A stretch of 52,444 bases of DNA. It comes from a virus. Lineage: Duplodnaviria > Heunggongvirae > Uroviricota > Caudoviricetes. This document shows, in pieces, positions 6,001 through 9,000 of this stretch. The position numbers were made by a program. Numbering within the stretch: position 1 is the first letter of the stretch; each line of letters opens with the position of its first letter. The DNA lies in IMG/VR virus record IMGVR_UViG_2897375277_000007; one strand, 5' to 3'.

Positions 6001-9000
6001 GCCGCAAATACATGCCGAAGCTTCCAGGGCAGCGGCTCTGTTACTGAATAACCATGTAGCAACATTCCAGCGTTTTTCTGCATCCCAGTCTTTCTCAAGG
6101 CCTGATACCATGAAGAAACCGTTAGTGTTGCCATCAAATAATTCTGTTTCCAGATTTTTAAGCAATGCCTGATGGACTCTTGCCAGGTATTCCGCCGGAA
6201 TTTCGCCACGAATTCTGATGAGATTGTCATAAACAAACATGTTCCCCGCATATGGCGATTTTTCTTTCTTGTTTTTTAAACCAGTATCATGAGCAAACTG
6301 ATCAATTTCTTCTTCCGTTGGTTTCGTATTGATGTTTTGCGCTGTCGTTTCTGCAATTTTATTTGCCACACTCTCTGAGTCGTGTTTATTTACAGACGCA
6401 CAGAAATACAATCCGGTAAACGCATCGCGCACATTACGAGCCATATTATCAGTGTCTTTTTTCGTTACCGATTCCAATGCAAGTTCGTTCAGACGATGAC
6501 GAAGTGTGTGTACTGCAATCTCCTGGATTGAAGTAGGTAAATCTTTAAATTCCATCGTCAACCTCATCAGTCAGAGTTTCTTGCTAACCAGCGATGCGCG
6601 CCAGCTTCGGTTTTAAACGTTTTACTTTTGGTATACGTCATCGCGGTGAATGTGCCGTCCTGGTTGGGAAACACGCCGTACACCAGAGATTCGTTGTTGC
6701 CAAGATCGATAGTATCCATGCTGACCTCATTTCCCCTTAACGCCGGGGTAGCGGAACAAAAACCTGCTGCATAGTTAAAGTTGAACCCTGCCGTCATGTT
6801 CTTACGCCTCGGGCTGGCTACTTAACCCCTGACCACTGCCTGGTAACTCGAAGTATTGCCCGGCGTTCTGTGGGGCGGGGTGGGTTGGTATGTTGTCAAG
6901 GTAACAAGAGTTACCTGAAAAGTCAATGCGATGTTGCAAAAGGTACATATAGGAGCGCAAAAAACCCGCAATGAATGCGGGTTCTGACTCAGTCTAAATA
7001 TTGATGTATTTGTGAAACTTTACCTTTAATAGTGTAACCACCATTCAGTTCAATGGGTTTGTAAAGCGGATTCAGTGACAGCAGATAGATGTTTGGTCCG
7101 TCAATCGCAACTTTTTTTAGTGTTACGTTCGGCGTTCCTTCCAATTGGATTAAGATTATTTTTCCCACCAGTTCTCTAATGTTACTTGAGCATGGCGTGA
7201 TCAGCACGGTAGATCCGTCGGGGATGGTTGGGAGGCCGTTAGAGTTCGTCATCGCATCTCCCTCAACGCGCAATAAAAAAGAGTTTTCAGCGGTTTTTGT
7301 CATGACATCAACCCAATTCTTAATACCAGGAATCTCGGTTACTGGGCAACTCATATCCCAATAACCAGCCTGTTCCCACGTTAAAACGGGCAACCGGGCG
7401 ATGTTGTCACTAATGTAAAGGTACTGATTCAGACGCAGATCGTCGGTTTTATCGTGACCATCCTTTCCATAAAGAATCCATTCAGGAGATTTGGAAAGCA
7501 ATTTTGACAGCAGATGCAAATTCTCACCGTCAGGTTTTGAAGAGCCATTTTCCCATTTTGTTACGGATACGCGAGATATGCCGATTGCTTTCGCAACCTG
7601 CTGTTGAGTTAGTCCAACGTCTTTTCGACGATTCCGAATACGTTCGCTGATAGTGTTTTTCATGTAACCAATGTTACCACCAAGTGATGTTGCTATGGTT
7701 GACATCTTTATGTAACTATTGTTACCCTTTTGTTCGAAATAACAGGAGAGTTTTATGTTCAAAGATGATGTTCTGCGCTATTTCAAAAAAAAGCGACTAG
7801 TAGCTGAGGCTCTTGGAATTTCACATGTGGCTGTTGTGCGGTGGAAAGCTGTTATTCCCAAACTTCGCGCAATGGAGCTGGATGAAATTACTAACGGTGA
7901 ATTGAAATACAATCCAGAACTTTACAAGAAGCAGGATAGCACCTCGAACGAAGGAAAGAATGATTCATGAAAATCAAGCATGAACACATCCGCATGGCGA
8001 TGAATGCCTGGGCGCATCCGGACGGCGAAAAAATACCGGCTGCGAAAATTACCAAAGCGTATTTCGAACTGGGAATGACGTTCCCGGAACTGTATGACGA
8101 CAGCCATCCGGAAGCTCTGGCTCGCAATACTCAGAAAATTTTCCGCTGGGTAGAGAAAGACACCCCTGATGCAGTTGAAAAAATTCAGGCGTTGTTACCA
8201 GCGATCGAAAAGGCAATGCCACCTTTGCTGGTGGCCAGAATGCGCAGCCACAGTTCAGCTTATTTTCGGGAGCTGGTGGAAACGCGGGAGCGATTGGTGA
8301 GAGACGCTGATGATTTTGTCGCAGTGGCAATCGCCGGTTTCAATCAGATGAACCGTGGTGGCCCGGCAGGAAATGCTGTGGCAGTACATTGACTGACAAT
8401 AGCCATATCGAATCGCTTCCGGCAACTCGTGAGTAAAAAGATTCGGTATCAGAAGAGGTGAGTATGGCTAACGCCTGGCTCAGATTATGGCATGACATGC
8501 CGAATGACCCTAAGTGGCGAACAATTGCCAGGGTGTCAGGGCAGCCAATTGCAACAGTGATGGCAGTGTATATCCACCTCCTGGTGAGCGCGTCACGAAA
8601 TGTCACGCGAGGTCACATTGATGTCACGACAGAAGATTTGGCAAGTGCGCTCGACGTGACAGAAGAGGTAATTGATTCAATTTTGCAGACGATGCAGGGG
8701 CGGGTACTTGATGGTGATTTAATCACTGGATGGGAAAAACGCCAGGTGCTGAAAGAGGACAACGGCAATATTTCGCAAACCGCAAAATCTCCTGCAGAGC
8801 GCAAGAGGGCGCAGCGAGAGAGGGAAAGAAAGCGGGAACAAAATGGCGATTGTCACGGCGCGTCACGAAATGTCACGCACATGTCACGACGAGTCACGAC
8901 AGATAAAGATACAGATAAAGATACAGATAAAGAAGATCAAAACACTATGGTCCATGGCGTAAAAAACGCCACGAACCAGGCAGGGGATGTTCAGTCCGTC

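Follow-up and report, generated by a model that had tools for sequence, protein, structure and literature searches.

We analysed IMG/VR record IMGVR_UViG_2897375277_000007, a stretch of 52,444 nucleotides (hereafter the window) that is a lambdoid Escherichia coli prophage, with a focus on its replication initiator gene (8464-9534, + strand). The results point to an ori-lambda-like origin embedded in this gene, whose product appears to belong to the replisome-organizer class of initiators, and we consider origin function likely on the strength of the sequence patterns described here. The candidate origin consists of two arrays of the hexamer GTCACG, the second of which is directly followed by an AT-rich tract and an inverted repeat.

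Exact copies of GTCACG on the + strand begin at positions 8592, 8602 and 8623 (array 1) and at 8852, 8862, 8872, 8883 and 8893 (array 2). An earlier note on this DNA had counted nine GTCACG copies in two clusters, at 8592-8628 and 8852-8898, with a phasing of about 10 bp. Both clusters were recovered at 10/11-bp spacing (10/10/11 bp in array 1 and 10/10/11/10 bp in array 2), and eight of the nine copies proved exact; the remaining one, at 8612, is the degenerate GTCACA, with GTCACG at the same place in most homologs. The earlier note had missed an inverted copy, CGTGAC, which a word search located 32 bp past array 1 (8655-8660, - strand), a lone GTCACG at 9548-9553, and a 19-nt identity, GCGTCACGAAATGTCACGC, common to both arrays (8590-8608 and 8860-8878). 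At the background rate of GTCACG on the + strand outside the region (2.7e-4 per nt), 0.013 copies would be expected in 8852-8898, where five were observed (Poisson P=3e-12), and 0.084 in 8592-8898, where eight were observed (Poisson P=6e-14). Array 1 (8590-8631, hexamers 8592-8628, + strand; three GTCACG plus GTCACA) encodes a loop of the initiator, aa 43-56 (ASRNVTRGHIDVTT). Array 2 (8852-8898, + strand; five GTCACG) lies in the part that codes for a disordered linker and is presumed to be the core initiator-binding site of the putative origin.

The hexamers fall into reading frames 2, 0, (1) and 0 in array 1 and 1, 2, 0, 2 and 0 in array 2; because a 10-bp period rotates the reading frame, peptide selection cannot create them. 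A synonymous-codon test was carried out on 19 homologs of 50-75% protein identity. The array 1 codons for V47, T48, G50, H51, V54 and T55 were 100% fixed in this set, with single codons used for valine (GTC), threonine (ACG), glycine (GGT) and histidine (CAC), and the same was true of the GTG codon for V65 in the inverted copy (100% fixed), a copy found in most homologs of the GTCACG clade. Normalised synonymous entropy was 0.14 in the array versus 0.81 in 38 other conserved columns (Mann-Whitney p=2.5e-6). Likewise, only 1 of 54 iteron nucleotides varied among 53 distinct close alleles, versus 138 of 1017 nucleotides elsewhere (Fisher p=0.0065), and iteron number was constant at 4+5 while the A-rich repeat ranged from 3 to 8 copies. 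On this pattern, the repeats are DNA elements rather than peptide repeats. That they arose by chance, or as a functionless by-product of a repetitive peptide or of replication slippage, is practically inconceivable to us: slippage does change the copy number of the adjacent 12-bp repeat, but the clustering (P<1e-11), the use of three frames, the synonymous codons fixed in 19 genes and a position kept across phyla have already refuted this explanation.

The A-rich/AT-rich tract past array 2 (8899-8945, + strand) is composed of 2.9 copies of ACAGATAAAGAT followed by AAGAAGATCAAAACACT, and encodes DKDTDKDTDKEDQNT. Tandem Repeats Finder reported the 12-bp unit at 8899-8933 with 100% matches, which bears out an earlier description of a 12-bp tandem after array 2 together with its encoded peptide, DKDTDKDTDKED. 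The GC minimum of the initiator gene (33%) falls at 8890-8949, where the + strand has a strong excess of A. In 19 genes from GC-rich hosts, the ratio of A/T-ending to other D/K/E codons was 118:44 within the 48 nt past array 2 and 467:594 elsewhere (Fisher p=6e-12). Because A/T-ending codons prevail against host GC, the tract is kept AT-rich at the DNA level, as would be the case for an unwinding element, and we presume that 8899-8945 is the DNA-unwinding element of the putative origin. Directly past the tract follows an inverted repeat with 13-bp arms and two mismatches (8948-8978; TGGTCCATGGCGT-AAAAA-ACGCCACGAACCA). It had surfaced as a terminator-like hairpin on the - strand in a promoter and terminator scan, whose counts were no higher than those obtained with shuffled sequence.

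Several other candidate signals were tried and rejected. A general rule of a palindrome after the AT tract had weak support: many relatives, though not all, have a hairpin there, as the window does, but it was in the top 5% of the gene's windows in 9 of 41 homologs in a test with selection bias. DnaA boxes as a co-factor signal gave only one-mismatch matches, at 8430, 8681 and 8731, none of them conserved or adjoining the arrays; ATATCCACC, which precedes array 1 and was also considered as a DnaA-box signal, is not conserved in homologs. As a separate observation, the end of the AT tract (8930-8940; homologs L009, L016, L023 and L043) often reads AAAGATCTAAA or GAAGATCAAAA, i.e. a GATC (Dam) site within a purine-rich run, which recalls the 13-mers of oriC. 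The part coding for the disordered linker also holds two copies of a 17-nt direct repeat 96 bp apart (9028-9044 and 9124-9140); alleles of 324 aa lack exactly 32 residues there, which fits a deletion between the two copies.

A different interpretation is that the arrays are initiator-binding sites with a control function, i.e. they block transcription of the gene itself or mediate plasmid-like pairing, and that replication starts elsewhere. Array 1 occupies an early part of the coding region, lies ∼260 bp from the AT tract and is followed by the inverted copy, which would suit such a role; some homologs lack array 1, which suggests that it is not essential for the core; and in plasmids such as P1 and F, additional iterons contribute to copy control. 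Array 2, however, always abuts an AT tract that is kept AT-rich in spite of host GC, as is characteristic of an unwinding element rather than of an operator. Furthermore, repeat and GC scans showed no second repeat-plus-AT region near the initiator gene, and control and initiation roles are compatible. We therefore regard a pure control function as improbable and favour an origin within the gene.

A survey of homologs, for which one genome per species was scanned, yielded 52 loci from Enterobacterales, Pseudomonas, Bordetella, Aquitalea, Acidovorax, Sphingomonas, Acidobacteria and others. The commonest hexamer of nearly every homologous gene is an iteron-like word, and the ∼50 homologs mostly retain arrays at nt ∼130-160 and ∼360-460 with 10/11-bp spacing, followed by the AT tract. 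Array 2 was present in nearly all of them, with 3-6 copies of the clade's own word. Most genes have the word GTCACG(A/C), while a second clade has GTAACGC(A), a third clade has (C)GAACGC(A) and a single gene has GAACGCCAG; the two arrays of any one gene share their word. In most homologs, tracts of (C)AGATAAAGATAAAG or CAGATACAGATACAG stand directly past array 2, and they do so even where host GC is 57-69%; (GATAAA)n or (GATACA)n are the tract types downstream of array 2 in most homologs. Two loci, L046 (a Serratia metagenome-assembled genome) and L053 (Pantoea), have an extra domain in the linker (nt ∼320-660), with a GIY-YIG/T5orf172-type look by eye only, and the palindromic repeat word ACTACGTAG replaces the usual arrays in both. 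Plasmid records were also searched for signs of autonomous replication, but only 11 matched, and these, being mostly prophages in large replicons or mislabelled chromosomes, say nothing on this point.

Chimeric genes show which part of the protein the repeat word accompanies. The N-domain of the window protein was found joined to other C-domains at 85-97% identity, and its C-domain also occurs behind other N-domains; by alignment, the recombination junction between the two modules is the DK-rich AT tract. Locus L137 has an unrelated N-domain (BLASTP E=0.89) and the same C-domain and DUF977 neighbour as the window. Its gene contains zero GTCACG copies but three copies of AAGGGGCTT at nt 172-196 and three more at nt 441-463, at 11-bp spacing and with the arrays ∼256 bp apart, and array 2 is followed by a purine-rich tract and then by the inverted repeat of the window. 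The repeat word thus follows the N-domain and the inverted repeat follows the C-module, while the two-array layout is kept.

The same observations bear on the idea that the repeats act at the RNA level or are bound not by the initiator but by, for example, DUF977, the YdaT-like protein or some host factor. The lone GTCACG just ahead of the DUF977 gene could be taken in its favour. In contrast, the word follows the N-domain across chimeras and clades, most homolog loci lack DUF977 and YdaT-like genes, the 10/11-bp phasing suits the DNA helix, and an Rfam search of 8400-9600 returned no family match. We judge this explanation very unlikely, and continue with the initiator as the presumed ligand of the repeats.

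The initiator gene encodes 356 aa from an ATG at 8464 (alternative GTG at 8458), and a match to PHROG 3729, 'replication initiation protein' (E=4.5e-253), covers the whole protein; near-identical proteins are named 'phage replisome organizer' at NCBI. In an AlphaFold 2 (AF2) model, an N-domain (aa 1-97) and a basic helix (aa 110-126) are separated by a disordered linker (aa 129-245) from a helical C-domain, after which comes a disordered tail. The N-terminal domain (8464-8754, + strand) is winged-helix-like, with helices at 2-14, 16-25, 29-45, 56-63 and 67-77, a beta hairpin at 78-87, and a predicted local distance difference test score (pLDDT) of 84-91 over most of its length; we presume that it is the iteron-binding part. 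Array 1 encodes the surface loop between helices 3 and 4, where model confidence is below that of the flanking helices, and the linker spans array 2 and the DKDT repeat. The C-domain (aa 246-332; 9199-9459, + strand) has helices at 250-258, 268-280 and 285-302 (pLDDT 66-79) and matches PHROG 1701, 'DnaD-like helicase loader', and PHROG 9327, 'primosomal protein'; it is presumed to be the partner-coupling domain.

The earlier note had called the open reading frame (ORF) 'O-like', which holds for role and position but not for family. No Pfam family matched the 356-aa protein at E≤0.01, nor did it match the lambda O family (PF04492, Phage_rep_O), which was also missing from the weak hits at E≤1 for 17 homologs; similarly, Pfam detected no Rep_3/RepA-type initiator domain in the protein. 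Instead, residues 5-122 aligned colinearly with positions 1-118 of 121 of the PF09681 profile (Phage_rep_org_N), at a sub-threshold E=0.12 (12.8 bits versus a cut-off of 23.3). PHROG 4880 and 5968, both 'replisome organizer', matched with E=2e-6 and 1e-4, and Foldseek against BFVD returned phage replication, DnaD-like and replisome-organizer models (E=2e-5 to 0.09). From these weak profile and structure matches, the predicted fold class of the initiator is that of the replisome organizers.

In agreement with the earlier note, the window has no loader, P, DnaC or DnaB-like gene after the initiator gene, and no + strand ORF overlaps the 3′ end of the latter. ORF scan and family matches concur with a 99.8%-identical annotated prophage (record NZ_CP039404.1), in which no helicase, loader or primase gene is annotated from the integrase through the tape measure gene. 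The next ORF (9575-9997, + strand; 140 aa) begins after a 40-nt spacer and had been described as unassigned. It is in fact a DUF977/LygF gene (Pfam PF06163, E=4e-29) that occupies the place of lambda ren; its match in PHROGs is family 142, 'Ren-like exclusion protein' (E=7e-45). The idea that it might be a helicase loader was not borne out by profile searches, which gave no loader family (lambda P PF06992, DnaC/IstB PF01695) at E≤0.01. In phage POCJ13, the DUF977 gene comes after a DnaC-like loader gene and DUF1627. The single GTCACG at 9548-9553 (+ strand) lies inside the 40-nt spacer, and could reflect either an action of the initiator on the downstream gene or chance.

Partner genes were common after, or overlapping, homologous initiator genes: lambda-P-like genes at many loci, DnaC/IstB-like genes (L019, L020, L027 and L043), DnaB-like helicase genes (L022, L035 and others) and a Toprim-DnaB primase-helicase gene (L014). 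Such a pattern is known from lambdoid replication modules and is what would be expected of an origin-binding initiator. In an E. coli O157-type prophage (L138/L139), a lambda-P-like gene (4950-5492 of L138) shares the final 88 nt of the initiator gene, which it reads in a different frame. Overlapping P-like genes of this kind can escape gene callers and simple ORF filters, and two database proteins (P0099 and P0106) appear as initiator-P fusions.

Given these partners, the module might be a remnant that has lost its loader, the prophage being replicated passively or in a recombination-dependent manner (RecE-like exonuclease) and the origin being inactive. Consistent with this, most relatives have a partner gene, a DnaC-like gene is directly next in five of ten lineages that share the C-terminal tail described below, cargo genes and an insertion sequence (IS) lie just downstream in the window, and the integrase of the closest annotated relative is frameshifted. 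However, the loader-less pair of initiator and DUF977 genes, with no helicase or loader gene after it, is also found in the phage records Tritos and vB_EcoS-689R5 (the region is likewise matched by Evi and others), and at least 80% of 8400-10100 is present in 1541 of 5426 complete E. coli genomes. The iterons, moreover, are nearly invariant among the 53 alleles. According to a 2025 survey, 34 of 314 lambdoid phages of Enterobacterales have an O-like gene only and neither helicase nor loader; none of these has been studied, and their replication is not understood (PMC12315714). Decay of the module is thus a distinctly improbable account, and a functional origin remains our preferred reading.

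How a lone initiator could obtain a helicase may be indicated by its C-terminus. The last 22 residues of the 356-aa protein (9466-9531, + strand; NQRCVNHISEPDTEIPPGFRG) carry the motif SEPDxxIPPGFRG at the very end and resemble the tail of E. coli DnaT: the last 17 residues are nearly identical (ISEPDTEIPPGFRG in the window, VSEPDSQIPPGFRG in DnaT). In searches of the PDB, the tail could be aligned along its entire length with the final 22-24 residues of DnaT (6aep, 2ru8 and 9zbt_D; E=0.019-0.067), and it matched positions 156-179 of 179 in the NCBIfam DnaT equivalog (NF002770; E=0.0015, tail only, 18.2 bits versus a cut-off of 201). The motif is conserved in homologs of 47-59% identity, in which the residues ahead of the tail vary.

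We determined the partner genes of 10 tail-bearing lineages and 44 non-tail loci. Five of the 10 tail-bearing lineages are directly followed by a DnaC-like gene (L027 and L140-L143) and the other five are loader-less (the window lineage, L137, L144, L016 and L023); the tails closest to that of host DnaT are found in three of these five (L137, L144 and the window lineage). A P-like or DnaB-like partner was found in 0/10 tail-bearing lineages versus 28/44 non-tail loci (Fisher p=2e-4) and a DnaC-like partner in 5/10 versus 3/44 (Fisher p=0.003), although the lineages were defined after data inspection, the counts are small and no phylogenetic correction was applied. In a Sphingomonas homolog, the initiator has a Pfam DnaT domain and the next gene is DnaC-like, resembling the host dnaT-dnaC pair. 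PF17948 (DnaT domain) gave no match in the window protein but did match some relatives. A general rule by which a DnaT-like domain replaces the loader was nevertheless discarded, as O157-type initiators with PF17948 precede a P-like gene; across the loci compared, it appears to be the tail motif alone, not the DnaT domain, that goes with DnaC or with no loader.

We propose that the N-terminal winged-helix-like domain binds the GTCACG repeats. Because these lie one helical turn apart, the bound protein would line up on one face of the DNA, and array 2, probably together with array 1 ∼260 bp upstream, would form a nucleoprotein complex. This complex would strain and open the adjoining AT tract (8899-8945), which the inverted repeat at 8948-8978 would bound. 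Since no phage helicase or loader gene is evident at the sequence level, the initiator must bring the host helicase. We hypothesize that the DnaT-like tail links the initiator with a DnaC-type loader, which in this case would be the host DnaC-DnaB complex, such that DnaB is loaded on the opened strand. The explanation as a whole, i.e. an origin within its own initiator gene at which the repeats are bound, the tract is opened and the host helicase is recruited, seems probable to us. The step from tail to DnaC is more tentative and somewhat against the odds. The more specific version, in which the SEPDxxIPPGFRG tail docks a DnaC-type loader and the loader-less initiator is an origin-targeted DnaT mimic that feeds host DnaC-DnaB loading, we would call doubtful at present. 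More speculative is the notion that the loop encoded by array 1 helps to read the repeats, in which case a recognition peptide would be encoded by the very DNA that it recognises.

Several observations weigh against parts of this proposal. Array 1 is absent in the distant homologs L038 and L054, and L048 and L049 have no clear iteron. In the N-domain helices, residues that could obviously read bases are few. A Foldseek search of the PDB with the whole AF2 model returned nothing significant, in a test limited by the long disordered middle of the protein; the top hits were MarR-type winged helices (E∼1), and the DnaT C-terminal domain ranked 40th (E=4). The N-domain was found in 25 of 50,697 phage records, with no model phage among them. 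With regard to the tail, the match is short and borderline (E about 0.02-0.07), and homology of the window C-domain to the DNA-binding domain of DnaT was rejected after hhalign found nothing, a weak negative given the shallow alignments. How DnaT recruits DnaB/DnaC is stated to be unknown (PMC13377028; PMC4132743), and its N-terminal domain, rather than the tail, may do so (PMC13377028). The only published role that we found for DnaT residues 154-179 is a contribution to cooperativity of single-stranded DNA binding (PMC4132743).

Compared with ori-lambda in gene O, the putative origin likewise lies within the initiator gene, in the part that codes for the linker between N- and C-domains, and shows the same order of iterons, AT-rich tract and inverted repeat. 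The gene is located in the rightward early operon after cro and the gene in cII position, as in lambda, and the linker is a junction of module exchange in both. At least four phased repeats are present in the linker part, as are the AT tract and the inverted repeat, while an adjacent P-type loader is missing. The iterons differ, being a 6-9-bp core at 10/11-bp spacing in the window versus four 19-bp iterons in lambda, and so does the protein, which has no Phage_rep_O match, no P gene beside it and a DnaT-like tail. The previously suggested parallel with ori-lambda, with a different iteron sequence and no loader gene, is consistent with all computational tests made, with the correction that array 1 constitutes a second array inside the region coding for the folded N-domain, unlike anything in ori-lambda. 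The system is a variant rather than a plain new member, with short repeats spaced by one turn, a second array in a folded domain, no loader and a DnaT-like tail.

A second point of comparison is oriL of SPP1, where direct repeats, together with an AT-rich unwinding element, lie inside gene 38, which encodes the replisome organizer G38P (PMC6316719). Repeats and AT element within the gene of an origin-binding organizer are common to both, as is, by weak matches, the fold class. SPP1 differs in that it encodes a loader (G39P) and a helicase (G40P) and has a second origin 13 kb away; the window protein, in turn, falls below the Pfam family threshold and its family has a Gram-negative host range. 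In iteron plasmids such as pSC101, R6K, RK2, F and P1, a single Rep initiator without a loader of its own relies on host DnaB-DnaC. These plasmids share with the window a lone initiator, phased direct repeats beside an AT tract and an extra repeat set away from the core, but the window protein has no Rep_3-type domain, convincing DnaA boxes are lacking and the repeats lie inside coding sequence. With respect to the dnaT-dnaC operon, tail-bearing relatives often directly precede a DnaC-like gene, and in one relative with a degenerate tail, the protein contains a Pfam DnaT domain and the adjacent gene is DnaC-like. In contrast to DnaT, the window protein has neither the DnaT N-domain nor the acidic linker that binds PriB, no PF17948 domain is detectable in it, and it would be targeted by sequence-specific repeats, whereas DnaT is targeted by PriA at forks.

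Origins inside initiator genes are classic (lambda O, SPP1 gene 38), and an origin as such is therefore unsurprising. No paper was found that describes GTCACG iterons or the window origin. The family is widespread and unstudied, reaching Pseudomonas, Bordetella, Sphingomonas and Acidobacteria, and its putative origin can be read from the sequence; the clade-specific repeat words predict replicon specificity and incompatibility. It also offers a case of overlapping code, in which a predicted protein-binding array that runs through the coding sequence of a folded domain fixes synonymous codons and dictates the sequence of a loop. The DnaT-like tail and its association with DnaC-type genes provide a testable route to helicase loading. 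If tail docking were true, it would explain helicase loading in the initiator-only lambdoid phages, which is not understood (PMC12315714), and would identify the part of DnaT that recruits DnaB/DnaC in replication restart, an open question (PMC13377028; PMC4132743).

In the window, the initiator gene belongs to the rightward early operon and comes after an S24/LexA-type repressor gene (6989-7762, - strand), a P22-Cro-like gene (7755-7970, + strand) and a YdaT-family gene in cII position (7967-8392, + strand), all three assigned by family matches and ORF scan. Between the DUF977 gene and the hok region, 10039-11288 holds cargo, i.e. a regulator with an XRE-type helix-turn-helix and a cupin domain (+ strand) and a GNAT acetyltransferase gene (- strand); Tritos and vB_EcoS-689R5, which have the same replication module, carry different genes at this position. 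A sok antisense RNA (11821-11987; Rfam RF01794, 110 bits) is overlapped by a transposase-like ORF of 362 aa (11931-13019, - strand). Because the NZ_CP039404.1 prophage has hokD at this position but no transposase-like ORF, an IS seems to have inserted into the hok/sok locus here. The early-left region encodes the antisense small RNA DicF (5318-5369, - strand; Rfam RF00039, 76 bits), and in the closest annotated relative, kil and a fragment of dicB are located nearby. Four prophage-borne tRNA genes (CAT anticodon, Lys, Thr and Gly) are located at 16012-16321, downstream of the Q gene. At the left end, a tRNA-Ser gene (892-981), which adjoins the integrase gene in a related prophage, is probably the attachment site.

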